Of a stretch of 64,000 nucleotides of DNA, positions 11,782 through 46,273 are shown piece after piece. This DNA comes from Pseudomonadota bacterium (lineage in GTDB: Bacteria; Bdellovibrionota_C; UBA2361; OMII01). The notes beneath the pieces are model-generated. The model was not told the DNA's origin and did no database searches. It was given only the letters and a program-made list of their open reading frames with translations. How positions within the stretch are numbered: the first letter of the stretch is position 1; each line of letters starts with the position of its first letter. A program made the translations under genes and the position numbers. The DNA lies in the NCBI GenBank assembly GCA_038134595.1, contig JAYPVM010000004.1, forward strand, positions 5,573-69,572. The letters are read 5' to 3'.

Positions 11782-11835
11782 TTACTCAAATACAATAAGC
11801 CCATCTTTAACGAGCATTTTGAGGATCTCTATACA
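11782..11835 (-). pseudogene. roxA: Displaced 3' end of roxA
   Basis: Encodes CIEILKMLVKDGLIVFE* versus CIELLRNLLKEGLIVFE* at 19297-19350; 42/54 nt identical. Confidence 0.85.
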
Positions 11836-13061
11836 GGAGGAGGTGCTTGGAAGTCTGGAATCCCTTCAAGCCTTCATGATGTCTTTAATTGAGTGCTCGT
11901 CTTGGATGAATGCGATGATGCGCATCTCAAGCTTTGCACATGGGGCACTCCAAGGGGTCTATCTCATAGATGCGCTTTATGCACGCGGCCCAACTACTCC
12001 TACGACTCCTACGGAACTCTCTTCGATAATCACTCTCCGTTTCTTCAGCTGGAGGAGGGGAGAGCTTAGCGCGTTCGCCTCTGCGCCTGCAGGAGTAGCG
12101 ACCGTAGTATCTGGTGATTGACTCGTAGGTTTTCGGGATATGAACTGAGAGCGCTGCTAAAAACTCCAGTGTGTCAAACTCATGAGCGGCGCCGTCTTTA
12201 GTGGTATAGGTAACGATATCGTCTTGGATTGCGAGCTTCTCCAGGGATAGGGGAGCGCGCTCGATGTAGCGAGCGACGAACTGCTCACTCTCTTTGTCGT
12301 GGAAGGGGTCCCCTAGCCAGACGCCGAAGCCAGTGTGATCCTGAGAGAGAATCTGTGCCACATCATCGTCGGTGATAAGCTCTTGCTTGTGGAGGTGCGC
12401 GAGTACCCGTTCAGCGAAGGCTTGTTCGATCGCTTTGAGGTCTACCTCCCCGAACCTGGTGAAGACGCCGTCCTTCCAGTACCCGTCGGCGAGGAGTCCG
12501 TGTAAGTGCGGGTGGTAATTTAGGGCTTCCCCAGCAGTTTGCACGGTGAAGATAGCGGCTAGTTCGCGCTCATCGATACCCAACACATGAGAGAGCGCCC
12601 CCCAAGCGGCACGAAAGAGGATAGTATTGAGCTTTCGGTCGTACTTGAAAAACACCCTTATACGTTTTGGGATAGTAAAGGTGGTGTGGCGATGGGGAAT
12701 GTTTTCGATGACCTCACTGTAAATGTGTTCTGCGAACTTCACTGCTCTCTTCGCCCCGCAAGAGGGACATACCCCCCGGCGTTTACAGGAGAACGCGATA
12801 AGAAGCGAGTGCTTGCAGCCGTCGCAGTATACCCGAGCGGCACCGTGAGCGAGGATTCCGCAGTTAAGGTACTCGTCGAAGGTTTTTAGCACCTCGTCGC
12901 GTAAGCACCCATACTGATGCTGGAACCGTGCCTCCCACTGGAATTGTAGGTCATCCCGAGAGTGGTAGACGATCTGGTAGAGGGAAGAGGTTTCTGGGGA
13001 GCGTCTCCTGTAGTGTTGGAGCCTCTCCTTTGCCTTCTCCCAGGAGTAGCGCCTTCAGCAT
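11836..13061 (-). mobile_element. IS91-family (HUH/Y2 rolling-circle) transposase pseudogene
   Basis: Zn-binding CDGC/FSCKRRGVCPSC, HUH motif HPHLH, TRYYGRYS, CPMC; start ATG 13061 out of frame by one base; frameshift at CKA*/EMRIIAFI; 3' end truncated. Confidence 0.88.
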
Positions 13062-13441
13062 GCAGGCTGGTTCGGGGAGGTGAGGCTAGGAGTTGTGTTG
13101 GAGTTGTGGAGGATTGCGGAAAGGGATTCAGGTGAGGTTTCAGGGAGGGCTATGCGGGCGCGGTCAGTAGGAATGTATGTGCGTGATGCGGCTCCGGATT
13201 CGCCGGGAGAAGAGCGGCTTGCTCCGGGATAGGATGGCACTCGAGCGGAGCGCCTTGGCGTGTCCGCTCATACCGAATGCCTCAAATCTTGCATTTAGAA
13301 CTTCGCTTGACTCACCTGGGCGGAACAAGTACCGGGCACCTCTCACCGTTTGGCTACCAACGAAAAAGCGGTTGATCTTCTCAGCATTAGATGGTGCACT
13401 GTCTTCACAATTCTCAGTGTCCAATTGATTTGTCAGCGCTT

Positions 13442-14023
13442 ATGAAACATTTAAGGTTCCTACTGAAGCTAGTTGCACTGTTGGTTCTACTACCTGTGCT
13501 AACTTTGGCGGCGGATACACCTTCAAAAACCTTCTACTCCCTTCGTGCTACTAGCTTAGACGGAAAGGTAGTTCAGTTCGAGGATTTGCGAGGAAAAGTT
13601 GTATTAGTTTCAAACATAGCCCTACGTTGTGGAACAACACCTCAGCTTGGAGCGCTCCAAAAGCTTTATGAGACCTATGCGAAAGAGGGGCTCGTTGTTT
13701 TGGGTTTCCCGTCTAATGATTTCACTGGTGAGGACCTTAGTTCGACTACAACGATTAGGAACACCTGTAGTAACAGATTTGGCGTGAGCTTCCCGATTTT
13801 TAAACCTGGTTCGGTAACGGGCGAACGCACTCAACCCGTCTTTGCCTTTCTTACGGAAAGCGGTAGCGATGAGATTAAAGGTCCCGTAAGCTTCAATTTT
13901 GAAAAGTTTTTAATTGACCGCTCTGGAATGCTTAGAAACCGATTCGGTCCCTTTACGGGCGCACAAAGTCAAGTAGTAGAGAGCAATGTGAGAGAACTCT
14001 TAAGAGAGGAAGTGGATAAATGA
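13442..14023 (+). CDS. Glutathione peroxidase family protein with signal peptide
   Basis: GKVVLVSNIALRCGTTPQ, GFPSNDF, FNFEKFLIDR. Confidence 0.9.
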   Translation: MKHLRFLLKLVALLVLLPVLTLAADTPSKTFYSLRATSLDGKVVQFEDLRGKVVLVSNIALRCGTTPQLGALQKLYETYAKEGLVVLGFPSNDFTGEDLSSTTTIRNTCSNRFGVSFPIFKPGSVTGERTQPVFAFLTESGSDEIKGPVSFNFEKFLIDRSGMLRNRFGPFTGAQSQVVESNVRELLREEVDK

Positions 14024-14805
14024 CCAAAAGCCCCGCTTCACGATCAAATCCCATCCTGATTAGCTGCTTGGTTCTTTTGACTCAGTCGCTTGTATCATGC
14101 AGTTTACTTAAGGCAAGACCAGCAGCTGACACTAGATTTGTTCCAAAACCAGAGGTGCTAAGTGAACAACGTGATAGAGCACCTTTTAATGGCTACTGGG
14201 TATTTGATCCACAAAAGTACTACAAACTCCGCAGCGAATACGCCGCTGTTTATATAAGCCCAGTAAACACAGATGTAGTACGAATGATGTATACTAGTGC
14301 AGAAGGTAGCGAAAAGACCAAACTGGAAAGAATTCAAGAGGCAGAGGAACTTGCCAGATATTTTCAAGCAAAGCTTAAATTACAGATTGAAGGCTTAAAT
14401 CAAGCCTCTCAAACAGAACTGATTCACATCGCTGATAAACCAGGAGAGGCGACCCTATCGGTAAACTTAGCCTTAGTTCAAGTGGTTCCCACAAAACCTG
14501 AAGTAAACTTTATTGGAACCGCACTAGGATTTTTTATCCCAGGTGGCGGTCTAGTTAAGATTGCAGGCGAAGGGAGTATAGCGATGGAGGGTTTTGTTTC
14601 TGAGGAGAGCGTCGATATTGTTTACGAACAGTACAAAGATCGCGAGGGACAGAAGGCCTCCGCGTTTAGTTTAAAGGACTACCAACGATATGCCCACATA
14701 CGAGAAGTTATCGATGATTGGGCAACTCAGATCGCCCAGCTTCTTGTAACGTCCCCCGCGGTAACAGTAGAAGACTCTTGGGTTATTTCATTAAGTCCAA
14801 TTTGA
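14020..14805 (+). CDS. DUF3313-like lipoprotein
   Basis: Lipobox VSC; YAAVYISPV, GSIAMEG, IDDWA; ATGA overlap with GPx. Confidence 0.65.
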   Translation: MTKSPASRSNPILISCLVLLTQSLVSCSLLKARPAADTRFVPKPEVLSEQRDRAPFNGYWVFDPQKYYKLRSEYAAVYISPVNTDVVRMMYTSAEGSEKTKLERIQEAEELARYFQAKLKLQIEGLNQASQTELIHIADKPGEATLSVNLALVQVVPTKPEVNFIGTALGFFIPGGGLVKIAGEGSIAMEGFVSEESVDIVYEQYKDREGQKASAFSLKDYQRYAHIREVIDDWATQIAQLLVTSPAVTVEDSWVISLSPI

Positions 14806-14844
14806 TCATCGCTCATGTATCAGTCTTCGCTATTCGGACTAGAC

Positions 14845-15060
14845 GAGCGCGAACTAGCCGCTATCTTCCCCTACACGACTACAACCACGTCAGACCCCTC
14901 AGGTCACTGGGAGGAGTCTCGCCGAGCTACAGAGGCGAACAGATAACCCACGAGGTGACGAGCCCAGATTTTTCTATCTGATGGGTGTCCAAAGAAAGGG
15001 GTAAGGTCAGGGGTTCAGGAAACTCTAATCAGGGTTGGTACTAACTGAGGGGGCAGATCA
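14845..15060 (+). mobile_element. Mosaic IS scar: IS91 transposase sliver, IS3-family C-terminus and two IS3-like right ends
   Basis: 24-bp exact inverted copy of 12548-12571; DYNHVRPLRSLGGVSP; ends GGGGTAAGGTCA (15009) and GGGGGCAGATCA (15060). Confidence 0.7.
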
Positions 15061-15141
15061 GGTGTATCTTCAACACAAGTAGATTTCTTCTCAGCCTCAA
15101 ACTCTTTTACCCATGGTTTCGCCTGAGATCGATTAGCTTGA

Positions 15142-15546
15142 GCAACACATGCCCAAAATACTGGTCATAAGACTCCAATAGTGCTTTACTCAGGACTGGT
15201 TGAAGCAGACTCAATTGATTGGCCACTCCACGGCACACAACAGGCGTATTTAAACGCACCCTTTAGCCACTATGCCCCTTATATAGCAGCCCACCTAATC
15301 TCAAGCCGCCCCAGTAATTTCGATAAAAACTTTGTTGCAAAGCATGACGAACTACTTTTTGTTACCTACCGCATCCGCAGGCCCAACCTGTATGAAGATA
15401 GAGACGGAGATGACAACTTCGTACACACGTATTTATTGGATTGGTTCTTAAAGTCAGGATTTACGCAACAGACAGAACTTACCCTTGATGAAGGTAACGC
15501 TAAAACGCCAACAGTATTAGCTTATTTACTGACACGCGATAACTAG
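15142..15546 (+). pseudogene. C-terminal fragment of an unknown gene (possibly a membrane glycosyltransferase tail)
   Basis: Open frame without good start or SD right after the IS scar; PIVLYSGLVEAD. Confidence 0.4.
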
Positions 15547-15661
15547 TTTTAACTACTACCGTTTTCTGCGAAACAAAGCGATTGTCAGCCCAACTAGGCT
15601 ATGCCAGAATCGTATCTGGCTATTAGCCACTGTGACAATATGTTGTACCTTTTTTTTCGGT

Positions 15662-15790
15662 TCAGCATCTAACGATGTTGATGCGGGGTTACTGGCTCAA
15701 CATCTGGCGATGTTGATGCGGGGTTACTGGCTCAACATCTGGCGATGTTGATGCGGGGTTACTGGCTCAACATCTGGCGATGTTGATGCG
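15662..15790. repeat. 35-bp tandem repeat carrying four TCAACATC-N4-GATGTTGA palindromes
   Basis: Palindromes at 15662 (degenerate), 15697, 15732, 15767 with identical 15-bp linker TGCGGGGTTACTGGC. Confidence 0.95.
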
Positions 15791-15820
15791 ATTACTTTAA
15801 CTTTGCTGAGTGAGATAGGC

Positions 15821-16573
15821 ATGAAAATATTTTTGAGAAACTTTAAACTAAACCCCTTGAGTAAGCTTCTACCTGGTTTGGCCCTCGGTCTTGTAATTCT
15901 ATCTGGAAGCGTGCTTGCCCGTTCAGCATTCGCTGCTGACCACTTAGACGGAGCAGTGGCAAGTGCCGATCCAGCAGCTGATATCACCGACGTGTATGCC
16001 TGGATGCAAAATCAGAATCAGATAAATTTAGTTCTAAACGTCTTTCCACTTGCAAGCTCAAGCTCCAAGTTTTCTGATTCAGTGCAGTATGTCTTTCGGG
16101 TGAATAGCCAGAGCGCCTATGGGCAAGTTGAACAAGAAAACCTATTAATTTGTACCTTTTCAGCCGAGCAGACCGTAAGCTGTGAGTTAAATGACAATGC
16201 TTTGGTGACTGACGTAGATGCCTCTTCCACCAGTGGACAACTATCATCCGATGGAAACTTTAGAATCTATGCCGGTTTGAGAAACGATCCATTCTTTTTC
16301 GATTTAACCAATTTTAATATCGTGCGCACCACGGTTCGGGATGCGGCTGCCAGCCTTGAATTTGACGAAGCTGGCTGCCCCACGGTTGATTCAGCCACTC
16401 AAGGTGTTTTAGTAAGTGCTCTAACCGGAAGTGGCGGCTTGAATGGAGCCAACTCACCACCAGCAGATTTCTTTGGCAGCTTAAATGTCTTGTCAATTGT
16501 TGTGCAGGCCGATAAGTCGCTTTTTGGAGCGGGTCCACTATATTCCGTATCAGCTAGTACTCATCGCAGATAG
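15821..16573 (+). CDS. DUF4331-family secreted protein
   Basis: Signal peptide; ADHLDG, DITDVYAW, AGLRNDPFFFDL, DFFGSLNVLSIVV. Confidence 0.85.
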   Translation: MKIFLRNFKLNPLSKLLPGLALGLVILSGSVLARSAFAADHLDGAVASADPAADITDVYAWMQNQNQINLVLNVFPLASSSSKFSDSVQYVFRVNSQSAYGQVEQENLLICTFSAEQTVSCELNDNALVTDVDASSTSGQLSSDGNFRIYAGLRNDPFFFDLTNFNIVRTTVRDAAASLEFDEAGCPTVDSATQGVLVSALTGSGGLNGANSPPADFFGSLNVLSIVVQADKSLFGAGPLYSVSASTHRR

Positions 16574-16609
16574 AACAGCTTATTTATAAATTTGAACAGG
16601 AGATTTACA

Positions 16610-17224
16610 GTGAAAACTAAACTAGCACTTGTATTAATTTTCGGCTTGGCCGCTTGCGGTGATAGCAATTCAAAACTAGGTAGCCAAATTGACGTTATGG
16701 GTCGTGCTGCTGTGAACACTGCCTTGATTTCGAGTTTTAGCGACGATCTAGCGCGTGGATCGGCAGAAGATAGCTTTAATACTACTGATAATTCAGACCG
16801 CGGTAGTTTTAAAAGTACGATCGCAGGACAACTTGCGATCTATGATTCACTAGTTGGAGGTTGTGGTGACAATGGTCTTACTAACCGCGCCTCTACCGAT
16901 CCAGCTGATGGACTTGCCACTGGACCTGATCGCTACAGCTTACTAGCTACCGTGCTAGCCGATGACCAGCTGTACGTAAACGGTAGCTCAGCAGGTGCTG
17001 AATCAGGACTTTGCAATCAGTACTTATCGGCCGAGCTTGGGGTTGTAGGCGTAACTGGCCTGGAGGCAGATTGTGGCGGACGAACCTTGAATTACGACGT
17101 AATTCAAACCACCTATTCAGCTGTCGCAGCTGGCGCTGCCACCGGTGTTGACGATGGGATTGCTTCTGATTCAGTTACACATTCAGATACTACCTTCCCA
17201 TTTTTAGCGGCGGCGGTCGATTAA
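16610..17224 (+). CDS. DUF4331-family lipoprotein
   Basis: SD AGGAG, GTG start, lipobox AAC; QIDVMGRAAVNTAL, GGRTLNYDVI, TFPFLA. Confidence 0.8.
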   Translation: MKTKLALVLIFGLAACGDSNSKLGSQIDVMGRAAVNTALISSFSDDLARGSAEDSFNTTDNSDRGSFKSTIAGQLAIYDSLVGGCGDNGLTNRASTDPADGLATGPDRYSLLATVLADDQLYVNGSSAGAESGLCNQYLSAELGVVGVTGLEADCGGRTLNYDVIQTTYSAVAAGAATGVDDGIASDSVTHSDTTFPFLAAAVD

Positions 17225-17229
17225 TATCA

Positions 17230-17260
17230 CGTACGGGCGGGCATAAGACCCGCCCGTACG
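17230..17260. other. Perfect 12-bp REP-like hairpin inside the operon
   Basis: CGTACGGGCGGG-N7-CCCGCCCGTACG, no U-tract. Confidence 0.7.
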
Positions 17261-17282
17261 GGCTACGGAATATCTTCAACTA

Positions 17283-18503
17283 ATGCCTCTATCTCAAACG
17301 CAAATCGCCGCGAAATCTGCTTTGGTCAAACTCGTCTTACCATTAGCCCTTGTTGCTATGGCATGGCTAACATTGCAACGCTATACACCGATTAGATCCT
17401 TTTCCAAGCCATCGACTCCTCGCTTTACCAACCCGACAATTGCAATTGATAATTTAAACAGCCAAATATTATCCTTAGAAAAATTACTGGCGAAGCAGCC
17501 TGAAAATTTTTCATACAAACAACAGCTATTTGACCGTTTAAAAATGCGCACCAGCTTTTTAGGTAAGCTCGATGACTTATGGCGTATCCAAGAAATTGCC
17601 AATAGTCTTGGAAGCTCTGCTCCTGAATTGATTTTGTTGGCCCGCTACCAGCTAAGCATACATGCCTTTGCAAGTGCCCGTGAAATTCTAGACAAGGCGC
17701 TAGGGCTTGCACCAAAGGAGGCTTCAGTTACCAAGCAAAAAGGTTACCTGGCTTTAGCGACATCTCGAGATTTTGAGGCCATCAATAGTGAGCTGCGGAA
17801 GATATCAAGCCACATCTCTATTTTCGAACAAACCCTAATGCAAGCCGAACTAGCTAGTAATCAAGGAGAGTTTTTGAAGGCCGATCATAATTTACAGGCC
17901 GCCATTGATGACTATGGCGACTCCTCGCCTTTTCCAATAGCGCAGTTGTATTTTCAGCGTGGCCTCTTATGGGCAGAAAAAGCGCAGGACCCAGCATTGG
18001 CAATGCGTTATTACTCCCGCGCGGTTGAAATTTTACCCCAGTACGCAGTAGCTCAAGTGCACTTAGCTGAACTTGAGGCTCAAGCAGGCATGCTAAGTAA
18101 CGCAATTGAAAGACTTAAGCCTCTAGCCGACGTATATGACCCCGAGCCCGCGGCTGTGCTGGGGGAATTGCTTATCTCTGACGGCAATGCAATTGAAGGG
18201 CAAGCCTATATAACCAAAGCTAGCGAACGCTACGCTGTATTACTGCGCGATTTTCCCCTGGCCTTTGCTGACCATGGCTCAGAGTTTTACATTGGCGCTG
18301 GAGCCAGGCCTGGCAAAGGACTGGAACTTGCCCTAATTAACCTAGAAAATCGCCCAACCGAACGGGCCTACAGCATTGCTATTGAGGCTGCTATAGCTGC
18401 CAAAGACGATGCCAAACTCTGTAAATTGGTGTTGGCGGCTAGAGCTCTAAATCCAGTTTTTGTAGGGTTACAGCAGCAGCTCGAAGAGCATCCCTGTAAA
18501 TAA
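17283..18503 (+). CDS. Membrane-anchored TPR protein
   Basis: N-terminal TM; TPR helices AMRYYSRAVEILPQYAVAQVHLAELE. Confidence 0.85.
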   Translation: MPLSQTQIAAKSALVKLVLPLALVAMAWLTLQRYTPIRSFSKPSTPRFTNPTIAIDNLNSQILSLEKLLAKQPENFSYKQQLFDRLKMRTSFLGKLDDLWRIQEIANSLGSSAPELILLARYQLSIHAFASAREILDKALGLAPKEASVTKQKGYLALATSRDFEAINSELRKISSHISIFEQTLMQAELASNQGEFLKADHNLQAAIDDYGDSSPFPIAQLYFQRGLLWAEKAQDPALAMRYYSRAVEILPQYAVAQVHLAELEAQAGMLSNAIERLKPLADVYDPEPAAVLGELLISDGNAIEGQAYITKASERYAVLLRDFPLAFADHGSEFYIGAGARPGKGLELALINLENRPTERAYSIAIEAAIAAKDDAKLCKLVLAARALNPVFVGLQQQLEEHPCK

Positions 18504-18724
18504 AAAAAGGACAGTGGAATTAACAGGTTATACCAATCTCAGCTGTCGGCAGGTGTGTACCTTAATTGCTCGTTTCTCTTTTGGTTGTGTTATCTCCGGT
18601 CCATCCTATTCGGAGGGTGTTTCTCCGGAGAAGTATAAAGGTTATGTGACTCTTAAAAAATGTGTTGCATATAAGGCGCAAAAAAAATTGTGGCTGTTTG
18701 TAGGGCGGGGCTTGGCCCATAGGG

Positions 18725-18868
18725 TTGATTGGTGAGTCACAAATACCGCTTAGGATCTTTAGAGCAATCCTAGTCCTGGTCTTAGTCTTAGTCTTGGCCC
18801 TGATCCTAGTCCAAAGCAATATTTTTCACTGGGCTAGAACCAGAGCTAGGACTCTTAATCACCAATCA
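18725..18868. repeat. Hexamer-repeat-rich long hairpin
   Basis: TGATTGGTGA...TCACCAATCA closing; inner TAGTCC/TAGTCT-type hexamers pair with GGCTAGAACCAGAGCTAGGA. Confidence 0.6.
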
Positions 18869-18889
18869 GTCCTGGGGCTTGGCCCCCTA

Positions 18890-19267
18890 CTACCGGTCCC
18901 CTTCCCCCTTCCAAAATGCCATGCGCTCCGCAATCATTTTTTCATATCCGCGCTTAGTGGGTTGATAGAAATTACACATCCCTAGTTCTTCGGGAAGATA
19001 TTGAATTTCTGGTAAATATCCGTCAGCACTGTCATGTGGATACTGGTAATCAACACCGTAGCCTTGGTCTTTCATTAAAGCCGTAGGAGCATTGCGCAAA
19101 TGTAGCGGAACCTCCACCTTGGGATTCTCTTTAATTGCAGCAACAGCCGCATGCATAGCTTTATAGCTGCGGTTAGATTTCGGGGCCGTGGCGAGGTAGG
19201 TAATACATTGTGCAATTGGAATACGCCCTTCAGGCAAACCTAAAAATTCATAAGCCTGTTGTGTCGA
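18890..19267 (-). pseudogene. rarA: 5'-truncated RarA/MgsA (C-terminal domain only)
   Basis: QQAYEFLGLPEGRIPIAQ, LATAPKSNRSY, VPLHLRNAPT, GYGVDYQYPHD; in-frame stop just upstream; AAA+ domain absent. Confidence 0.9.
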
Positions 19268-19296
19268 TTATCCTTTTTAAAGAGAGGGAGTTGTAT

Positions 19297-20469
19297 TTAT
19301 TCAAATACAATAAGCCCCTCTTTGAGGAGGTTTCTCAACAGCTCGATACAGCCTGAATCGGTAACATACTGAGAGATATTTTCAACGGGTTGCGAGATTC
19401 GGTCAGCTAGTATTGTTGCTAGTCGAGCGGGTTTTCCGGTTAGTAACACCTCAGAGCCACCAGCAAAAAACCGTATTTTGCGGCTGTTTTTGATAGAAAC
19501 GTATGAAAGGCGAGCTCCTTCGACGGTTACAATGTGTGACGATTGCGCCACTTTTTTAAGCAAGTTTGAGGTCGTAGGTGTGCGTTTCTTTGCCGGTAGT
19601 TCCACATCAGAATACGGCTCTGTAGAAGAGGTGCCAAGCCATGATTCTATATAGTGGTCTTGGACGATTCTTTTTGCGAATATCTCTTTGATTCTTTCGA
19701 CGGCGTCATGCGATATCTCACCCGGCCGCTGAGGAGCAAGGTTGGGATCGGTAAAAAGCTCAGATTCATCGATGGACGCCAATCCTTCGCTGATAACGCC
19801 GTGCACAATTTCGTGGATCGTCGGCGCTCGAAATCCAACAGAAATCGTCATACATCCATCACCCTGTGCGATCCCATGGTGCGCAAAACGGGGCGGAAGA
19901 TAAAGTATATCTCCGGGTTCGAGCACCCATCGACTAGTTGGATTAAAATCCTTAAGTAGCCGGATAGGAAGATCTGGAATGAAGTTATCGTCAGGCTGCG
20001 GGAAATCCTCTATCTGCCACTCCCGCCTGCCCGCCGCTTGCACCAAAAAGACATCGTAGTTATCTACGTGCGCACCAACGTTTCCCTGGTCGTAGGCAAC
20101 GCTAATCATCACATCATCTATCCGCCAAAAGGGAATAAACGAGAAGTGATCGACTAGTTTATGAACCTCTGGAATAAACCGATCTACACCGTTTACCAAA
20201 ACCGTCCAATGGGACTTTGGAAGTTCAGAAAATATTGATGGTTCAAAAGGCCCCTTTCGCACCTCCCACGGTGTTTTGCCATCTCGCTCTAAAATGAGTC
20301 GTGACTCGATTCGTTCATCGCAACAAAGACCCGCTACTTCATCAGGTGAGATGATTTCAGGAAAGGGCGATAGAGCCCCCTTCATCAGAAGGGGCTTTTT
20401 TTGCCAATAGGACTTTAGAAACTTCTCTTGAGTTAATTTTCCTAGAATAGGCCACGAGATCTTTTTCAT
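19297..20469 (-). CDS. roxA: JmjC/cupin ribosomal protein uL16 3-hydroxylase (RoxA/YcfD)
   Basis: FLKSYWQKKPLL, WRIDDVMIS, GAHVDNYDVFLVQ, LYLPPRFAHHG; real start ATG 20469. Confidence 0.92.
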   Translation of the reverse strand: MKKISWPILGKLTQEKFLKSYWQKKPLLMKGALSPFPEIISPDEVAGLCCDERIESRLILERDGKTPWEVRKGPFEPSIFSELPKSHWTVLVNGVDRFIPEVHKLVDHFSFIPFWRIDDVMISVAYDQGNVGAHVDNYDVFLVQAAGRREWQIEDFPQPDDNFIPDLPIRLLKDFNPTSRWVLEPGDILYLPPRFAHHGIAQGDGCMTISVGFRAPTIHEIVHGVISEGLASIDESELFTDPNLAPQRPGEISHDAVERIKEIFAKRIVQDHYIESWLGTSSTEPYSDVELPAKKRTPTTSNLLKKVAQSSHIVTVEGARLSYVSIKNSRKIRFFAGGSEVLLTGKPARLATILADRISQPVENISQYVTDSGCIELLRNLLKEGLIVFE

Positions 20470-26228: not shown

Positions 26229-27186
26229 CGCGCACCCGTTGGAGAACTGGCGTAGCAATTGCACGAGCCTTCTCCGCTCCTGCTAACAGGGTGTTTTGTA
26301 GAAGCTTTTCGTCGGCTCGAATATCGTTATAACGCGCGCGAATCTCCATCACCGAGTCATTTATGACCCCAAAAAGCTCATCTTTTGCATGCCCCCAACC
26401 CAAACCTCCAGCGGCAAGTCGAGTCTCCAAATCTTTGTACTGATCTGCGGTTGCAAACAACCGATAAAGTATTCCAACCAATGAACCTTCGAGTTCCTTT
26501 GGTTCTTCCAAGGGAGTTGAATCAGTTGTGATGGACATAATCTTCTTTCGAAGTGCCTTTTCTTCTGCCAAAAAGGGGATCTCATTGTTATAGGATTTCG
26601 ACATCTTTCTTCCATCTAAACCTGGAATAAGCATCACTTCCTCTCTCACGTACAGTTCTGGAAGTTTTAGCACGTCGCCGTATATTGCGTTAAAAGCACC
26701 TGCGATATCCCTTGCCATCTCAACATGTTGTTTCTGATCTTTTCCCACAGGAACGATATCAGAGTCGTACAAGAGGATATCAGCGGCCATCAGTACGGGG
26801 TACGCGAAGAGTCCGTGATTGATATCTGCATCTGCCGCCAAAGCATCTTTGTAGGCATGCCCCTTTTCCAGTAGTCCTAAATTAGTCATGCAACTTAAGT
26901 ACCATGCAAGCTCACACACCTCAGGTCTATCTGATTGCCTAAAAAGAATATGTGCATCAGTATCGAGACCGCATGCAAGCCACGTTGCAAGGTGATCGAG
27001 AGTTTGTCGTGCGAGTGCTCTGGGATCACGATTGTTGGTCAACGCATGGAGATCAGCGATAAAATACACGCCTTGATAACGCTCGGTAAACTCCAGAGCT
27101 GGTTTGATAGCTCCAAGATAGTTTCCCAAGTGTAGGTTGCCGGTTGCTCGAAGTCCTGTAAGTGCGCGTTTAGTGGTCGTTGTCAT
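26209..27186 (-). CDS. trpS: Tryptophan--tRNA ligase
   Basis: HLGN, YPVLMAADIL, VPVGKDQKQH, KMSKS. Confidence 0.98.
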   Translation of the reverse strand: MTTTTKRALTGLRATGNLHLGNYLGAIKPALEFTERYQGVYFIADLHALTNNRDPRALARQTLDHLATWLACGLDTDAHILFRQSDRPEVCELAWYLSCMTNLGLLEKGHAYKDALAADADINHGLFAYPVLMAADILLYDSDIVPVGKDQKQHVEMARDIAGAFNAIYGDVLKLPELYVREEVMLIPGLDGRKMSKSYNNEIPFLAEEKALRKKIMSITTDSTPLEEPKELEGSLVGILYRLFATADQYKDLETRLAAGGLGWGHAKDELFGVINDSVMEIRARYNDIRADEKLLQNTLLAGAEKARAIATPVLQRVRDAVGIR

Positions 27187-27194
27187 GTGGGCCT

Positions 27195-28340
27195 TTATCC
27201 CGTTTTCTTTAAGTCTTGTATGTGTCTAAAACTACTATCTCGCTCCTTGGGAGTAAAGCCTGCCTGTTCAATAACACGACGCAGTTCTTCTGGGCTCATA
27301 GCCCATTGATTCTTGGTAGGAGCACCGGCTTTCGATACGACATTTTCCTCCATCATGGTACTTCCGATATCATCGCACCCCGAATAGAGGCCAATTTGAG
27401 CGATGTCAGTCCCTAATGTAGGCCAACTAGACTGATGGTGTTGGATATTATCAAGAATAATCCTACTCCATGCCAGATGCTTTAGATACTCGACACTAGA
27501 GGCGCCATAATTCTTAGCATGTCGGCTTCGACCCAACGACGTATATTCGTTAAACTGATGGGTCCACGAGACAAAAAGGTTAAACCCCGCATTACCCGAA
27601 AGAAGAGCCTTGTCTTGTAGTGTTCGAAGCTTCTCAAGGTGATTCCACCGGTGTTCAATTGTCTCGCCGAATCCAATCACCATTGTAGCGCTCGTGACAA
27701 GTCCAAGCTCTTGTGCAGATTCCATTATCTCTAGCCACCTAGCAGAGCGAATCTTTTTGGGGCTAATTCGTTTCCTGACTTCGTCGTCTAAGATCTCCGC
27801 TCCTCCACCCGGCAGACCGTAGAGTCCACGATCTCTTAGATCTACAAGTATCTCCGATGCAGAGATTCCTGAAACAAGAGACATTTGATTTATCTCAGAG
27901 GGAGAGAAAGCATTTATTTGGAGAGCTGGATACGTTTCATGTATCCACGAGATCATCTCTTGATAAAACGAATACGGAAGGTCGTCGTTGTGTCCACCTT
28001 GAAGCAGTATCCTAGATGCTCCGAGCGCTACTGCCTCATCAATCTTGGTTTTAAGAATCGAGTGGCTTAGGACATAGCTTTCGGGGTGTGTTGAATCGTG
28101 GCGATAGAAGGCACAAAACGAGCAATCGGAATTACACACGTTTGTATAGTTAATATTTCTATCGATAAGGTATGTGGCGACCGTGGGCGGATTTTGCCGC
28201 AGCCTAATCTCATGCGCCACAACTGCAAGCTCCGGATAGGTAGCTTCTTTCCAGATAAGGAGAGCCTCATCTTTGGATATTCGTCTGCCGGAGAGATGAG
28301 ACTTTAGAATTGTATCGACAGATGAATTTTTCCCGCTCAT
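27195..28340 (-). CDS. mqnC: Cyclic dehypoxanthine futalosine synthase (radical SAM)
   Basis: DRNINYTNVCNSDCSFCAFY, LPGGGAEIL, GSTMMEENVVS. Confidence 0.92.
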   Translation of the reverse strand: MSGKNSSVDTILKSHLSGRRISKDEALLIWKEATYPELAVVAHEIRLRQNPPTVATYLIDRNINYTNVCNSDCSFCAFYRHDSTHPESYVLSHSILKTKIDEAVALGASRILLQGGHNDDLPYSFYQEMISWIHETYPALQINAFSPSEINQMSLVSGISASEILVDLRDRGLYGLPGGGAEILDDEVRKRISPKKIRSARWLEIMESAQELGLVTSATMVIGFGETIEHRWNHLEKLRTLQDKALLSGNAGFNLFVSWTHQFNEYTSLGRSRHAKNYGASSVEYLKHLAWSRIILDNIQHHQSSWPTLGTDIAQIGLYSGCDDIGSTMMEENVVSKAGAPTKNQWAMSPEELRRVIEQAGFTPKERDSSFRHIQDLKKTG

Positions 28341-28418
28341 ACACAAGCCCCCCCCTCCGTATTTTTTGATAGTATCATGTAAAGCCTGCTTGGAAATTAG
28401 AGCCTGTAAAACGGATGT

Positions 28419-28522
28419 CTATTTGTCGAAGTCAATCTTGGTAGAGCTCGAGCCTTGATCGATATCTAAGAATGATTGCGTCATTATTTTCCGAATTATA
28501 TGCCTTGCTCTATGGTACGGCA
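28419..28522 (-). pseudogene. 5' fragment (upstream region plus 16 codons) of an FGGY kinase allele
   Basis: MTQSFLDIDQGSSSTK versus MIEVFLGIDQGSSSTK at 33594; upstream 15-mer TGCCGTACCATAGAG shared with 33555-33569. Confidence 0.85.
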
Positions 28523-28820
28523 GGCTAAAGCCCATGTTCAATCAAAAAAATCACTCTTTTGGCTTTGTGGCTTTTTTAACCAACGAGCATAGGCTTGTCA
28601 TTGGTTTAGCCATCCAATATATCAGTGATAGCTTTACATAGTCGTTCCTCATCAGATGCGTCGGCAACTGACATTAAAAAGACGATACCTTCACTTGATT
28701 TCTGAAAGTAGCGCTTCAAGCAATTTAGACAAGTCGCGCCAAACGAACACTCTCAAAACCATTGGCATTCAAAAGATCAAATTCAGGGGAATCGTTAGAA
28801 CGATAGCACCTCCAAATATT

Positions 28821-30809
28821 CTATCCATTCGCCTTTAACGACTTTGCGATAAAAGCCGATACATACCGCGACCCCTCAACGGTTAGATGGCCGCGGTCTC
28901 TGTATAACAACACACCCTCAGGGCTAGCCGAGCATATGGTACCGCGACAAAAAAGAGTTGCAAGATCAATCACCTTGGCATTACCAAACTCCTTGGCTTC
29001 CTCTTCAGCTACCGTCTGATACTCATTGTAAATCCTGAAGGGCGCAATAGTAAGATCTCTCGTGAAAGTACAATCTCTTTTGAAGATACTTATCGGGCGC
29101 TCCTGACAACTTAGCGGATCAAAGGGAAGTCTAGGTGGGCTAATCACGATAAACACCTGTTTCCCAGCTTTTTCCAACATGGTTAGGGTTCTTCGAAATC
29201 CGTTTGAATATTTGATCGACCGCTTTGTAAGATTGGGATTCTCATTATCTCGAAGGGTATAATCACAGGTAGGGGCATGTGCTAAAATTACTTTTTTTAT
29301 CGACTCCGATTTGACAACAAATTCTAGCGCTTGTTTGATGTTTTTATACCCGTTTAGTTTAACAGCACGCAAAGCTTCTGAAGACTCATTAAATGCTGAC
29401 GACATGTTGAGCAATGGCGCCTGACAACAGGATGGAAAAGATGCCAGCTTTTCGCCTGAATCCTGATACCGCTCGGCAAGGCCGTCAAACAACTGATTGG
29501 CATGAGAGTCGCCGAGTAGAGCAATCGTAATTTTCTCTTTTTTCGCCTGCAGTCGACATTCTATATCCCCGTGCTTTGTCCATGCAGGGAAAAGATCGGA
29601 ACATCGATCGATCATCAAACGGTTATTCAACCCAGAGGAGTCAACATCACTCTTTACAGAGAAGGCAAACTTAGCCCCACACAGACCGAGCATGGCGGCA
29701 AGTAGCACTACTACCTTAATTCGAGGATACTCTTTGCTTCGTAGGGGCTGTTCAACAAGGTAAAACGTTGCAGTTGCCAAAACTATCGAGAGGGCAATTG
29801 CCCCCACAGAACTCGATAGTCCTATTTCGTTACCCTTCTGAATTCTCAATAGGGCAAGAATCGGCCAATGCCATAGGTAGAGCGAATAACTTATCTTTCC
29901 GAGCCAAACGCTGAAGGGATTTCCCAATGTCATTCGAGTAAGGGTGCTCGTAGAGTTAGCAACTACACATAGTGCGGCACCAAGAGTGGGGAGCAGCGCT
30001 ATTACTCCCGGAAAGGCGCTCTTAGCCGAGATGAGCGTGCATGCTCCGACTAGAAAAAGCACACCTAATGCAAAAATAATATCTTGCTTTCGAATTTTTG
30101 TCCCCAGAAACATCCTCGACATCCGAAACTGTGGAAGCCAATTTAAGCGCGTCGTAGGCATATGCAACACACACGCAACGACAGCTCCGATCATAAACTC
30201 CCAAGCCCGCGTGAGAGTCGAATAGAAAGCATTGATAGGTGCCGACTGAATCGAGTCTATATTAAGTAGAAATGAGCCCAAACCAACCAAGCAAATCGGT
30301 ATCAGTGGAGTCAGTCGGCATTTCCATGTAATCCACAACACCAATGGCCAGACGAGATAAAACTGCAACTCAATGGCAAGGCTCCATAAATGCAAAAGTG
30401 GATTGGTCTGTGCAGCGGATTTAAAATACTCATTGTATTCGACAATTAACGTTTTGTTTATCGTGCTCGTCGCAGTAGCTGATACATACCGGAGAAGTTC
30501 GGCATATTCTTCGTCGAGGAGAAGATAAGGCCCCATCACTGTAAGCGTTCCCATGACAAGAAGTAGCGCCGGAAACAGTCGCCGAATCCGTCGCCCGTAA
30601 AAATTAACGATACTCAATCTTTTCTTCACTAAGCTTTCAAGAAGCTGTGCGGTGATTAAAAATCCACTTAAAACGAAGAATATATCGACACCAACAAATC
30701 CACCTGGAACAAAAGAAGGTGCGACATGGAACATGACAACCAAAGCGATAGCAAGGCCCCGTAATCCATCTAAGTCACGGCGGTATTCCGCAGGATATAT
30801 TACACGCAC
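28821..30809 (-). CDS. OafA-like O-acyltransferase (acyltransferase-3 plus SGNH)
   Basis: DLDGLRGLAI, GVDIFFVLSG, HLWSLAIE, SYSLYLWHWP, GDSHA, DRGHL. Confidence 0.95.
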   Translation of the reverse strand: MRVIYPAEYRRDLDGLRGLAIALVVMFHVAPSFVPGGFVGVDIFFVLSGFLITAQLLESLVKKRLSIVNFYGRRIRRLFPALLLVMGTLTVMGPYLLLDEEYAELLRYVSATATSTINKTLIVEYNEYFKSAAQTNPLLHLWSLAIELQFYLVWPLVLWITWKCRLTPLIPICLVGLGSFLLNIDSIQSAPINAFYSTLTRAWEFMIGAVVACVLHMPTTRLNWLPQFRMSRMFLGTKIRKQDIIFALGVLFLVGACTLISAKSAFPGVIALLPTLGAALCVVANSTSTLTRMTLGNPFSVWLGKISYSLYLWHWPILALLRIQKGNEIGLSSSVGAIALSIVLATATFYLVEQPLRSKEYPRIKVVVLLAAMLGLCGAKFAFSVKSDVDSSGLNNRLMIDRCSDLFPAWTKHGDIECRLQAKKEKITIALLGDSHANQLFDGLAERYQDSGEKLASFPSCCQAPLLNMSSAFNESSEALRAVKLNGYKNIKQALEFVVKSESIKKVILAHAPTCDYTLRDNENPNLTKRSIKYSNGFRRTLTMLEKAGKQVFIVISPPRLPFDPLSCQERPISIFKRDCTFTRDLTIAPFRIYNEYQTVAEEEAKEFGNAKVIDLATLFCRGTICSASPEGVLLYRDRGHLTVEGSRYVSAFIAKSLKANG

Positions 30810-31008
30810 ATCATTCTCCGCTTTGCTTGAAACCTATTCCAAAAACACATTACTTTCACAAAATTAGGGAATACAGAGTAAAGTTGACCATATTTCTTCA
30901 GATTGGGGTACCAGTCTTGAATTTTAACTTCTAGTGCCCTTAATTTCGGATACCATACGCATGGCAAATAATGCTAAAAGTTATACAGACAGGGCTTTGT
31001 AACTTCGA

Positions 31009-31039
31009 TTTCCATGATAGCATCGAGCTATCATGGAAA
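31009..31039. other. Perfect 13-bp inverted repeat
   Basis: TTTCCATGATAGC-N5-GCTATCATGGAAA just before ATG 31047. Confidence 0.7.
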
Positions 31040-31046
31040 CTTTCTT

Positions 31047-31475
31047 ATGACCGCACTAAACCAAACTTCAAAAGTAATTCTCTCTTCTTGTCTCTCCGGC
31101 AGACGAATATCCAAAGATGAGGCTCTCCTTATCTGGAAAGAAGCTACCTATCCGGAGCTTGCAGTTGTGGCGCATGAGATTAGGCTGCGGCAAAATCCGC
31201 CCACGGTCGCCACATACCTTATCGATAGAAATATTAACTATACAAACGTGTGTAATTCCGATTGCTCGTTTTGTGCCTTCTATCGCCACGATTCAACGCA
31301 CCCCGAAAGCTATGTTCTAAGCCACTCGATACTTAAATCTAAGGTTGATGAGGCAGTAGCGCTTGGAGCTTGTAGACTCCTTCTTCAGGGGGGACACAAT
31401 GACGATCTTCCGTATTCGTTTCATCAAGAGATGATCTCGTGGATACATGAAACGTATCCACCTCTAACAAGCTGA
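31047..31475 (+). pseudogene. mqnC: Inverted 5' partial copy of mqnC
   Basis: 31091-31460 matches reverse complement of 27927-28296; first 207 bp identical, then ~18 mostly synonymous differences. Confidence 0.93.
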
Positions 31476-31507
31476 TAATATGCTGTATTTTAGCAAGATA
31501 GATTAGT

Positions 31508-31960
31508 GTGATGCTCTTTTGTATTATTGTGAGTGCTATGCAAGAAGTATCACCCAATCACACCCCATTTCCAGTTGTAGAGGTATTACAGAATACCATC
31601 TGCCGCATCCTGCCCCAGCCGCTTCAAACCGAGTTACTCAAAGACTTTGTTGTGAGCCAAGGCCCCTTTGGTGCAGAGCTGTGTATACATGGGATAAGTG
31701 ATGGAGCGTATGTTGTCGAGCGTTTGTCGCGCTCTGAGATTACCTGTAAAATTAGAATAGGACATAAGTGCTCGCGGGAGATATTGTCGAAGAAACTTGA
31801 GCCAGTAGCGGACGCATCTCTAGTTGTTGAGAGCCTCAGAAATACATTGAAGGGATTCATTTCGCTGTATTCTCAACCGGTAGATACGCGAAACGATCAG
31901 CTTATCGTGCCAAGAGCAACCCAGCGTTGTGCCCACCGAAAGCAAAGGAGTGAGAGATAG
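31508..31960 (+). CDS. Hypothetical protein
   Basis: 150-aa ORF filling the gap; 3' end overlaps fabF. Confidence 0.45.
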   Translation: MMLFCIIVSAMQEVSPNHTPFPVVEVLQNTICRILPQPLQTELLKDFVVSQGPFGAELCIHGISDGAYVVERLSRSEITCKIRIGHKCSREILSKKLEPVADASLVVESLRNTLKGFISLYSQPVDTRNDQLIVPRATQRCAHRKQRSER

Positions 31961-33194
31961 CGAGAGGGGATTTGATATGTTGGGTCGTACTTGAGATTCC
32001 AATGTTGCGTGACGGTTCTTCATCGCAAGGGATAGGAGGGCAAGTTTTTGTTTGCAGTGCCAAAACAGTAAGGATCGCTTCAAGCGCTCCAGATGCGCCG
32101 AGCGTATGGCCGAAAACAGCTTTAGAAGCTGTTAGGGGAGGGGTGTGTGGAAAGAGCTCCTCGATAAGAGCGGCTTCGATGCGATCTCCCTCTTGAGTAC
32201 CGGTGCCGTGTGTATTGATGTGTCCGATGTCTTGCGCTGAAACATCTGCTCTTTGTAGTAAGTCAGTAATTATTCTGCGAGCCCCAGCCCCCTCGGGGTT
32301 GCTTGCCATGATGTTGTATGCATCAAACGACTGAGCAGCGGCGAGAATTTGCGCGAGAATCCGTGCGCCGCGGTTTTGAGCATGTTGCCTGGACTCTAGA
32401 ATAAGGATTCCGCTAGCCCCGTTAGAAAATAGAAATCCAGAACGATTGTTAGTAAACGGCTTGGCACACGGACGTGTCTCTGCAGTTGTTAGAACACGAG
32501 CTATGTCGAACCCCCGAAACAGTGCACCTGTAGATTCGTCGAGAAATTCAGATCCACCAACGATGGCGCAATCTAATTCGCCCCGACTAATCGCATCGGT
32601 TGCAAGGCACAGGGCTATTGTGGATGCTGAACAAGCTCCACTTACAGTATGGTTTGCACCCCGTGCACCGAACCTTATGCCTATCTGCCCCGAGAGCGCA
32701 TTTGGCATAATCATTGGCACAACAAACGGATTAAATCGCTTGCTCGTGCTAAGGGCGCTGTTTGGTATGGCGGGAGATATGTGTGCCAGATGATTTTGTA
32801 AGAGCGAAGAAATTCCCCCAACGCCTGTGCCAACAAAAACTCCTAGTCTTGTCGGGTCTATCGAAGGTATGGAGAAAATGCATTTTTTCTCATTAACACA
32901 GGTAGTCTCCAGCCCTGCGTCGTTAAGCGCTTCGTGCGTGGCGCACAAAGCAAGGCTCTGTGAGATATCCAACTGGCGTTGCTCCACAGGGGTGAGCCCG
33001 TTTTCGAGTACTTGATATTGCTGAGGTTGCAACGGAGACCAAAAAAGCGAATTGGGAGCAAAGTAGTCCCGCCACTCTTGCGGAATTGGTTCCGCGCCAC
33101 ATGCTCCAACAAGAGCGGTTTCCCAAAGTTGTTGGGCATTGCATGCGCGAGGAGCTATTGCGCCTACTCCTGTTATAGCAATGGGTGTTTTCAT
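31902..33194 (-). CDS. fabF: Beta-ketoacyl-ACP synthase II family
   Basis: GACSAS, NTHGTGT, GHTLGASGA, SFAFGGHN. Confidence 0.88.
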   Translation of the reverse strand: MKTPIAITGVGAIAPRACNAQQLWETALVGACGAEPIPQEWRDYFAPNSLFWSPLQPQQYQVLENGLTPVEQRQLDISQSLALCATHEALNDAGLETTCVNEKKCIFSIPSIDPTRLGVFVGTGVGGISSLLQNHLAHISPAIPNSALSTSKRFNPFVVPMIMPNALSGQIGIRFGARGANHTVSGACSASTIALCLATDAISRGELDCAIVGGSEFLDESTGALFRGFDIARVLTTAETRPCAKPFTNNRSGFLFSNGASGILILESRQHAQNRGARILAQILAAAQSFDAYNIMASNPEGAGARRIITDLLQRADVSAQDIGHINTHGTGTQEGDRIEAALIEELFPHTPPLTASKAVFGHTLGASGALEAILTVLALQTKTCPPIPCDEEPSRNIGISSTTQHIKSPLAISHSFAFGGHNAGLLLAR

Positions 33195-33427
33195 GAATGT
33201 TTTTGAATGTAGTTGTATACATCACCTACTGTGACAAACGTTTCCGCAACTTCGTTAGGAATTGTCCTTTCAAAATTATCTTCTAGTGCCATCAGGAGAG
33301 AAACGATATCGATGGAGTCCGCCCCTAAGTCATCCTTAAAATGCGAAGATAGCTCGATTTGTTCGGGAGGGCACCGAAGCACCTCTACGACTACATTTTG
33401 GATCTGAAGAAATAGGTCTTTATCCAT
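33191..33427 (-). CDS. acpP: Acyl carrier protein
   Basis: DLGADSID; ATGA overlap with fabF. Confidence 0.9.
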   Translation of the reverse strand: MDKDLFLQIQNVVVEVLRCPPEQIELSSHFKDDLGADSIDIVSLLMALEDNFERTIPNEVAETFVTVGDVYNYIQKHS

Positions 33428-33593
33428 AAAAATTCTTGCGCCCCATACTAATGCTACAAAAGGATAGCTTGAGGCCCTAGCTTCTACAAGACAAATACCG
33501 ATCGAGTGTATTGGTAAGTAACTTCCATTTTTACACTACTTTAGTAGCTCTTCTTGCCGTACCATAGAGGCAAGCTATTATATTCGGTAGAAA

Positions 33594-35057
33594 ATGATTG
33601 AGGTATTCTTAGGTATAGATCAAGGTTCTAGCTCCACCAAGGGAGTACTCGTTACCAGTGGTGGTGATGTTTTGTATCACCATCGAGTATCGGCTCCACC
33701 GATCTCTGAGGTCGATAAGCATGTTGAGCAAGATGCTTCAACGATCCTTGAGTCAGTCACAGAGGTATTTGCAGCCTGTGTAAGCGAAGCAAAGAGACAG
33801 GATAAAACTATTGCGTCGTGGGGATTAGCAACGCAGCGCTCCGGAGTAGTTGCTTGGAACAAGCTTTCAGGTGACGTGATGTGCCCGATGATTACATGGG
33901 CGGATACAAGAACACAGCACATTATAGACGGCTTTGGTCGAGAGGCTGATAAGATAACCGAGCAAACAGGACTTCCCACGATAGCAAACTTCGCTGCACC
34001 AAAGATCCATCTACTGCAGCGAAATTTTCAGGATGCGACAACGCTTGTTGCAACCCTCGACACATTTCTCCTCCATCGCCTTACAAATGGGCTACGCTAT
34101 ACTACCGAAGACACCATGGCCGCCCGGACGATGCTCTATAATCTATACGATAAAACGTGGAGCGAAGATCTCTGTAGGCGCTTTAAGGTAGAGAAGCGAC
34201 GCCTGCCTGAGATTACACCATCTCTTTTCTCGCACGGTGTGTATCAAGGGATTCCGCTTACAGCGATGCTTGGAGACCAGCAAGCCGCCCTTTTTTCATT
34301 TGGTGGAACGAAAAACCAAGCTGTCTTAAATCTAGGCACGATAGGTTCTGCTGTAGTTATGACGGGAGACGACCTCGTGCTACAGCCTGGCTTAAAGACC
34401 ACACCGTGCTATTCCAGTGAAGGCCAAGCTAGCAAAGGCAAGGATGTTCAGTATGTAAGTGAGATAACGTATCCCTCACTTGGAAGTAGTATGAGAGGTA
34501 TTTTGCACAAAGGCTGGTGCAAATCCTCAGAGGAGATAGATGCGATGTGTGCCGCATCATTAGCCAAAACTTCAGACCCAAAGGTGTGTGCGTATTGGGC
34601 AAATGAAACCGAGGTTTCAGATGCATACCCCTTCGGCGCTCCTGATACGATGAAAGAGAAGCCAGATGCAGATGACAGCGATAGAGCTCGTGCCGTTACA
34701 GAGAACATCGGAAATCATATCGTCTTGATGCTCGAAGAGCTCCAAGCCAAGGGGCTTCTAGAAGAAGCCAAAAAAACCGCAATAGAGGTCTCTGGTGGTG
34801 TATCGGCGGGAGAATATCTTTTGCAATACATCGCCGACGTATCTGGATACACCCTTCGTTGTAGACAGGAGAATGAAGCGACTGCGATCGGTGCCGCTCT
34901 AGCATCGATGTTTTATACCCTCGATCTTACGTATGTACCGACTATTCATACGGAACAAGCACCGAGAATCTTTTCGCCGCAAGACTCCACGAGGCACAAG
35001 GGATTTCTTGTTTGGCAGAGGCTTCGGCGGGATGTGTTGGCGGGGCAAGTGCTCTAA
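33594..35057 (+). CDS. FGGY-family carbohydrate kinase (glycerol kinase-like)
   Basis: GIDQGSSSTK, WADTRT, GDQQAAL, EATAIGAA. Confidence 0.9.
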   Translation: MIEVFLGIDQGSSSTKGVLVTSGGDVLYHHRVSAPPISEVDKHVEQDASTILESVTEVFAACVSEAKRQDKTIASWGLATQRSGVVAWNKLSGDVMCPMITWADTRTQHIIDGFGREADKITEQTGLPTIANFAAPKIHLLQRNFQDATTLVATLDTFLLHRLTNGLRYTTEDTMAARTMLYNLYDKTWSEDLCRRFKVEKRRLPEITPSLFSHGVYQGIPLTAMLGDQQAALFSFGGTKNQAVLNLGTIGSAVVMTGDDLVLQPGLKTTPCYSSEGQASKGKDVQYVSEITYPSLGSSMRGILHKGWCKSSEEIDAMCAASLAKTSDPKVCAYWANETEVSDAYPFGAPDTMKEKPDADDSDRARAVTENIGNHIVLMLEELQAKGLLEEAKKTAIEVSGGVSAGEYLLQYIADVSGYTLRCRQENEATAIGAALASMFYTLDLTYVPTIHTEQAPRIFSPQDSTRHKGFLVWQRLRRDVLAGQVL

Positions 35058-46258: not shown

Positions 46259-46273
46259 GACTAGTGTAGAAAC

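Follow-up and report, generated by a model that had tools for sequence, protein, structure and literature searches.

Gene-end scraps beside accessory cassettes as probable scars of cassette exchange, partly carried by IS91-family elements, in an uncultured estuarine bacterium

Homology-facilitated illegitimate recombination (HFIR) is known from naturally transformable bacteria, and the available part of PMC3240628 describes it for E. coli conjugation, together with single-crossover duplications of 109-950 bp. IS91 forms circular intermediates and captures neighbouring DNA by read-through, as far as the excerpt of PMC5714925 goes, and ISCR1-linked integrons with duplications of the 3' conserved segment (3'-CS) appear in the accessible portion of PMC3575428. 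The sections of PMC4033161 at hand describe aquatic microbes that exchange replacement islands by homologous recombination; nothing on HFIR was found in PMC11375855. Here we compare with these systems a stretch of 64,000 nucleotides (the window; G000:C4:5573-69572) from an uncultured estuarine bacterium, whose genome comprises 2.6 Mb in 23 contigs at 94% completeness and 2.3% contamination. In this window short, diverged copies of the ends of three genes, roxA, FGGY and mqnC, lie beside accessory genes; we call these copies scraps and mark truncated copies with a prime. An earlier reading of the sequence alone (the sequence-only reading) had attributed them to HFIR or to an undescribed locus-targeted uptake route. 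We find that no evidence calls for such a route and that known processes suffice: the scraps were probably left where related lineages exchanged cassettes at variable sites beside conserved genes, and the whole reads best as ordinary scarring of this kind, partly carried by IS91-family elements.

The gene map was built from open reading frames (ORFs) with Pfam and NCBIfam scans. Self-BLASTN over window positions 8000-37000, together with protein-level matches, confirmed all three scrap pairs that had been seen to bracket accessory segments. The roxA' scrap (11752..11836, minus strand) consists of the last 18 codons of roxA (11782-11836) and about 30 nt of weakly similar 3' flank; it matches 19297-19351 in direct orientation (78.2% over 55 nt, E 9e-6, including a 17-nt identical run), and at the protein level the match covers the last 17 residues and the stop. 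The resident FGGY kinase gene (33555..35057, plus strand; coding part 33594-35057), counted with its 39-nt 5' untranslated region (UTR), has an inverted scrap on the minus strand that comprises these 39 nt and the first 16 codons, all 16 residues being matched (28437-28522 against 33641-33555, 77% over 87 nt, E 3e-11). This scrap is real, but its start had been placed at 28419, 18 nt too far left. The resident mqnC, a CofH/MqnC radical SAM gene (27195..28340, minus strand), is accompanied by a fragment of 142 codons, mqnC' (31047..31475, plus strand). The two form an inverted repeat with arms at 27922-28296 and 31091-31465, the second aligning in reverse as 31465-31091 (94.9% over 375 nt, E 1e-169); at the protein level the homology begins at the Met at 31047 and covers residues 1-140. 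When the whole 2.6-Mb genome was searched, no scrap had a match beyond its own neighbour gene, which leaves no paralogue in the rest of the genome.

The differences within the pairs had been described as mainly synonymous or conservative, and the counts agree. By codon position (1/2/3) they amount to 5/1/13 for mqnC, 3/2/7 for roxA and 2/3/6 for FGGY, in sum 10/6/26, with 26 of 42 at the third position (chi-square p 3e-4). Two pairs outside the window that are described below, cmoB (3/4/14) and bPH_2 (4/1/21), bring the sum to 17/11/61 and the third-position share to 61 of 89 (p 1e-11). Since dead copies decaying in place would not give such a bias, the copies diverged under purifying selection, as functional genes in other lineages. 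The joints cut genes, as the illegitimate joints of HFIR do: the IS91-family transposase gene (tnp) is truncated at 11835, rarA' at 19267, FGGY' at codon 16 and mqnC' at codon 142.

The arrangement at mqnC and FGGY becomes intelligible from other genomes of the genus, where 8 of 12 loci have the two genes side by side in divergent orientation, with 130-275 nt between them; a ninth locus has 2.5 kb between them, and in 3 of the 12 FGGY was not found in the available flank. Because FGGY and mqnC are such neighbours in congeners, FGGY' (minus), the AT3-SGNH acyltransferase gene next to it (AT3; 28821..30809, minus) and mqnC' (plus) together form a coherent, truncated second haplotype of the FGGY|mqnC locus with AT3 inserted as its cargo. 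As assembled, this second copy lies inverted within the resident spacer, which itself holds ketoacyl-ACP synthase (KAS) and acyl carrier protein (ACP) genes (31902..33427, minus) as the cargo of the resident haplotype. Its content varies within the genus, which makes it a hotspot: G016 carries a dCache adenylate cyclase gene there, and in G006 mqnC has an FG-GAP gene beside it. The FGGY 5' UTR is common to the scrap and the resident gene and occurs in 0 of 9 congeners, which argues that the source of the scrap was nearer than any sampled species (mqnC at most 69% identical in nucleotides). Self-BLAST turned up neither mqnC nor FGGY scraps in the 12 congener loci, whose mqnC N-termini vary too much to identify the native allele.

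When the 5' parts of the two mqnC copies are aligned, little similarity is seen upstream and over the first 15-17 codons; 207 nt are then identical, followed by 19 differences in 168 nt (11%), a clustering with p 2e-7. The identical tract is a product of gene conversion between the inverted copies, and the true divergence of the two haplotypes is about 11% in coding DNA. Near-perfect palindromes are found at 31009-31039 and 23660-23696; the former, immediately ahead of the mqnC' start, is similar to a shorter motif in front of the resident mqnC and may be an operator.

Metagenomes place these structures in a population. Positions 27800-33700 are present in runs of 7 studies, and four runs, X1 (the likely source run), X4 (from another study), X6 and X8, were compared over 11700-31699 as Logan contigs (k=31); X4 contains a co-occurring lineage, here lineage Z, with core genes diverged by 2-6%. 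Core pieces of X4 and X6 differ from the window by 1.3-6.1%, the reference letters being missing at the listed core sites. In X4 the core pieces carry 31/545, 84/2306, 99/2090, 51/1544 and 48/1106 other letters, as against only 2/899 and 2/1099 on 28267-30316, and in X6, where each core piece carries 10 to 62 other letters, the AT3 segment has 0/664 and 0/547. Divergence switches in 27956-28267, inside mqnC, where the difference between window and lineage Z drops from 4.3% (26851-27956) to 0.2% (28267-29165). In roxA, 19268-20000 differs by 1.5% from lineage Z, compared with 3.3-5.7% in the neighbouring core. The roxA cargo (13701-19036) is present in X1 and X8 and has a depth of 0-0.64 in X4 and X6; one X4 contig matches nothing to the left of 19268 and has 11 differences over the 733 nt to its right. 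The AT3 cassette has moved recently between lineages, and the roxA cassette is polymorphic. This fits the pattern of replacement islands: one cassette is shared by X4, X6 and the window, and the cargo of the FGGY|mqnC spacer is a different one in G016 and G006.

Contigs bridge the joints at mqnC, the FGGY scrap, AT3, the mqnC' start and rarA'/roxA (MgsA'/roxA). A single X1 contig (28267-31120, 0 differences) runs from the mqnC start through the FGGY' scrap and AT3 to the mqnC' start and so contains both mqnC N-termini; an X4 contig (28267-29165) spans the same left joints, and another X1 contig (18885-21706) spans rarA'/roxA. The 207-nt perfect inverted repeat is longer than k, so every contig ends at 27956 or 28267, and the orientation of 28297-31090 is that of the original assembly alone. 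One X8 contig joins 28369 and 31091 on opposite strands and may represent a flipped isomer or a third mqnC 5' allele.

The second accessory segment, the roxA island, begins where congener synteny stops, beyond the resident roxA-like JmjC_2 gene (19297..20469, minus), the last gene of the congener-syntenic block. Both of its ends are truncated genes. At the left end a degenerate IS91-family element (11835..13152, minus) adjoins the roxA scrap; this finding, and an intact IS91 elsewhere in the genome that is flanked by a like duplication, contradict the view that mobile-element genes are missing. The transposase gene of the element (tnp ORF 11927-12892), of the Y2 HUH type, scores 148 bits with NF033538 and the intact copy on contig C2 161 bits (cut-off 125 bits); matches to PF04986 and PF14319 were obtained as well. 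The window copy is 3'-truncated with a premature stop and encodes 321 aa, compared with 371 aa in the intact copy. The cut at 11835 coincides with the border of the roxA scrap, and on the side downstream of tnp the element is short of about 290 nt: ten other places in the genome match the stretch directly after the scrap, and in their alignment the IS runs about 290 nt past the point where the window copy breaks off. Because the other copies continue, scrap and IS do not meet at 11836|11837 in an end made by transposition; they meet in an illegitimate joint or at the edge of a deletion.

The cargo of the roxA island lies on the 5' side of tnp. A first module on the plus strand (13391..14805) contains glutathione peroxidase (GSHPx) and DUF3313 genes and is followed by an inverted 39-nt scrap of the IS91 transposase gene (14833..14871, plus; 85-93% to 12545-12583). 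The second module (15181..18503, plus) holds orf121, a 35-nt tandem repeat (3.8 units at 15659-15790, in the gap between orf121 and the DUF4331 gene), the DUF4331 gene, orf210 and a TPR protein gene. A 5'-truncated C-terminal fragment of rarA/mgsA (18890..19267, minus) closes the island; its reading frame extends to 19267, and its cut end is the right edge. The transposase gene, its 39-nt scrap, the rarA fragment and the inverted orientation of FGGY/mqnC had all been missed before. The earlier statement that the segments lack an integrase and a tRNA stands: Pfam scans of the island ORFs gave no recombinase family, tyrosine or serine, four PF00589 matches lie elsewhere in the genome, and the window contains 0 tRNAs.

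The phenomenon recurs. Self-BLASTN of the whole genome and tBLASTN of 2152 ORFs found two more clear cases, cmoB and bPH_2, which gives at least four scarred loci in 2.6 Mb. At the first, cmoB is followed by 4.5 kb of cargo, a 129-nt cmoB 3' scrap (82%, with a 20-nt identical run) and a B12-HTH gene; among five congener loci cmoB stands directly beside B12-HTH in two, is separated from it by inserted AsnC-type genes in two and lacks this neighbour in one. At the second, on contig C2, the order is bPH_2, an intact IS91, 377 nt, a 5'-truncated bPH_2 and dprA. The repeat here is 498 nt long (89.6%) and ends exactly at the IS terminus, and its 26 coding differences change only 2 amino acids. The flank duplicate on C2 therefore stops at the IS91 terminus; the window IS lacks about 290 nt at that place, and its original joint is gone.

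Two further repeat pairs were rejected as the same phenomenon, one on C7, which is a plain 841-nt tandem duplication, and one at 141.6/148.0 kb of C4, which is a 191-nt element resembling a miniature inverted-repeat transposable element (MITE). The two copies of the latter (G000:C4:141583-141772 and 147912-148102; L033) are inverted and 94% identical, with 16-nt terminal inverted repeats. In the congener G043 (contig C81; L139 10017-10130) a cmoB 3' scrap (residues 283-320, 68%) lies beside an AAA_14/DUF4143 gene, and the cmoB site of that genome itself is empty.

Taken together, these observations are probably accounted for by cassette exchange, and the events might have run as follows, including the order, the entry route and the choice of native copy that we infer. 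DNA from a relative with different cargo at the same locus would have paired with the resident locus through the shared neighbour gene. One side would have been resolved by host homologous recombination and the other closed either by an illegitimate joint, as in HFIR, or through single crossover of a circle, leaving a diverged end of the neighbour gene beside the new cargo. At two loci at least (roxA, and bPH_2 on C2) the incoming DNA would have been linked to an IS91-family rolling-circle element, and at these two the circle may have been a rolling-circle intermediate with read-through flank. Later the duplicates would have interacted within the chromosome, producing the 207-nt conversion tract in the mqnC 5' parts, and deletions would have trimmed the scraps. 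The order of gene, cargo and 3' scrap, the truncated genes at the joints and the missing recombinase fit either HFIR-type import or single crossover of a circle. The insert is colinear with its anchor at roxA and cmoB. As to competence, the search for com and dprA genes that had been suggested returned ComEC and DprA, which bacteria without competence can have too; the 94%-complete genome gave no match to the ComEA HHH_3 domain and none to Ku.

A number of observations weigh against this explanation. The mqnC/FGGY insert is inverted as assembled, whereas HFIR and a single crossover would both give direct order, so that HFIR, as proposed earlier, accounts for the truncated genes at the joints but not for this orientation. 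Insertion through two illegitimate joints leaves the same-locus origin of the fragment unexplained. At roxA the pair, 55-85 nt at 78%, is too short and too diverged for an internal crossover, and the anchor must therefore have been elsewhere or been deleted. rarA' is 56% identical to the genome's own rarA and 55-62% to those of 32 genus genomes, compared with 65-68% to other families of the order, which points to a donor outside the genus and not to a close relative; seven loci around rarA genes of those families had no cargo gene in common and no shared synteny with the roxA island. Lineage Z lacks the roxA cargo, yet its roxA 3' end is like the resident gene and not the scrap. None of the listed contigs bridges the left joint at 11836|11837. 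No donor was found: metagenome contigs searched with mqnC reached at best 68% in amino acids among 80 loci kept, and in a DNA search of 34 other genus genomes mqnC reached at most 69% and neither AT3 nor KAS had a match. Microhomology at the joints cannot be read, because no donor or empty-site sequence was recovered. The proposal that the scraps come from orthologues of relatives, spliced in at the matching locus, is borne out by the third-position bias, the lack of paralogues, the shared FGGY UTR, the sharing of AT3 and the patchy occurrence of the roxA cargo, and fails for rarA', whose donor was more distant.

Several accounts of the inversion were considered. The tandem-inversion-duplication model and the model of 'duplication associated with inversion', both worked by hand, are ruled out by the different cargo at the FGGY UTR and by the selection-shaped, clustered differences between the mqnC/FGGY copies. 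A single illegitimate crossover, which gives tandem order, would need a further inversion without repeats to drive it. The simplest formal account would be capture of a linear fragment in a break within the spacer, followed by conversion, and this leaves the same-locus origin unexplained.

Possible, though we would put it at clearly less than even, is that capture of the IS91/ISCR type was the main engine: a read-through circle carrying part of a neighbour gene would integrate by homology in a relative and duplicate the flank, as in ISCR1-linked class 1 integrons. Toleman in 2006 reportedly dealt with such integrons and with rolling-circle transposition of IS91. The genome offers much that fits, namely the IS91-family transposase beside the roxA scrap, with the cargo lying to the 5' side of tnp; the intact element on C2, whose terminus abuts the end of the 498-nt repeat, with the second copy on the tnp 5' side; diverged repeats around IS91 fragments on C11; five places with Y2_Tnp in the genome; and IS91 fragments near FGGY and roxA in the congener G009. 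The 3'-CS duplications of ISCR1-linked integrons, in the available part of PMC3575428, are a parallel. However, the mqnC/FGGY and cmoB islands contain no IS91 sequence, the window copy is truncated with a premature stop and would require an extra deletion, and crossover is inefficient between sequences that are 10-22% diverged. The end of the element presumed to act as ori is the one given in the IS91 literature; here only the geometry relative to tnp was read. The C11 repeats (G000:C11:83434-91701; L029), 81-84% identical, surround two IS91 fragments, an MbnB/TglH-like gene and an unnamed gene and are circularly permuted on one strand (A B ... B A). In G009 (contig C55) the transposase fragments (L023 644-856 and L027 8509-8841), 82-89% identical in amino acids to the window copy, sit just past FGGY and about 7 kb past roxA.

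It seems doubtful that the scraps are working homology arms and not passive scars; IS91-family elements of the genus would then acquire the end of a neighbour gene and, with the help of host RecA, direct themselves and what they carry to the matching locus of relatives. Equally doubtful is that the inverted repeats of the mqnC 5' parts (375 nt, 207 nt of them identical) bound a module that RecA inverts; in that event flipping would swap the mqnC N-terminus and promoter and reorient the AT3 gene.

Elements such as e14 in icd and SXT in prfC bring a surrogate end for the gene into which they insert. That the islands are decayed elements of this site-specific kind, with integrases since lost, is improbable. 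The order of gene, island and 3' scrap at three loci and the identical runs of 17 nt (roxA) and 20 nt (cmoB) would suit such insertion, as would the G043 cmoB scrap, which starts at the same residue, 283, as the scrap in our genome and lies elsewhere in its own; conservation, however, also starts at this residue, and no integrase lies near that scrap. The island ORFs scanned include no tyrosine or serine recombinase, the PF00589 matches being elsewhere, the window has no tRNA, and the roxA island ends in truncated genes on both sides.

A co-assembly artefact of strains in a metagenome-assembled genome could be suspected from the 23 contigs and 2.3% contamination, from the several lineages that co-occur, and from the IS91 interior and the 207-nt perfect inverted repeat, both beyond the resolution of k=31 contigs. 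We consider it very unlikely, since independent contigs bridge the joints, including the difference-free X1 contig with both mqnC N-termini and the X4 contig from another study, since lineages share or lack the cassettes, and since the stretch is present in runs from 7 studies. Hardly credible, finally, is an origin in place by local (inverted) duplication of neighbour-gene ends and later decay, without foreign DNA: the copies do lie within 3-7.5 kb of their genes, the C7 tandem duplication is an ordinary one and the 207-nt tract indicates that copies interact, but the third-position bias, the different contexts upstream of FGGY (AT3 and ACP-KAS), the confinement of the 19 differences to 168 of 375 nt and the polymorphism of cargo among lineages speak against it.

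The remainder of the window holds other variable features. Left of the roxA scrap an acidic repeat protein of 1060 aa is encoded at 8487-11669 (plus); it has a double-disulfide repeat (NF033662) with internal repeats of about 105 nt and is not beside roxA in congeners. A tandem repeat with a period of about 96 nt occupies 1-430. Between roxA and mqnC lie a SpoU methylase gene, three unnamed genes and the TrpRS gene. Right of FGGY, 35134-43891 forms a third variable segment with EamA, LarN-domain and other genes, which the congener loci L013 and L021 lack between FGGY and their counterparts of window genes 43892-48157; BLASTN of this segment found no scraps.

The window thus offers a clear natural example, from an uncultured estuarine bacterium, of how accessory cassettes pass from one related lineage to another with no integrase involved. 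To the known cases it adds recurrence within one genome, a link to IS91 at two loci and evidence from the population. It should be of use in annotating gene-end scraps and in studying the exchange of flexible islands; no new mechanism is indicated.

Among described systems, HFIR resembles these loci in that foreign DNA lies beside a shared gene, with one side probably homologous and the other joint cutting unrelated or truncated genes, and in that neither a recombinase gene nor a target-site duplication is present. It differs in that the anchor crossover is visible here only indirectly, as a divergence switch inside mqnC, one insert is inverted and transformation is only a possible route of entry. 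Campbell-type insertion of a circle, with duplications of 109-950 bp in the available part of PMC3240628, has its counterpart in the direct, diverged gene-end duplicates that flank the insert at roxA, cmoB and bPH_2; here, however, the duplicates are 10-22% diverged and as short as 55 nt, and the mqnC/FGGY copies are inverted. The class 1 integrons linked to ISCR1 and IS91, as far as the accessible portions of PMC3575428 and PMC5714925 describe them, likewise place an IS91-family transposase beside captured non-cassette genes with what here seem to be partial flank duplicates on both sides, and they too lack inverted repeats and target duplications. Here, in contrast, the flanks are chromosomal housekeeping genes of an environmental bacterium, there is no integron, the window copy is dead and 2 of 4 loci are without the element. 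The replacement flexible genomic islands in the available sections of PMC4033161 share the near-identical cassette in diverged clonal frames and the mostly synonymous substitutions at boundaries, and the cargo here (AT3-SGNH acyltransferase, ACP/KAS), like theirs, likely acts on the cell envelope. Where those islands are cleanly replaced, the present locus has two alternative cassettes stacked together with the gene-end scraps.

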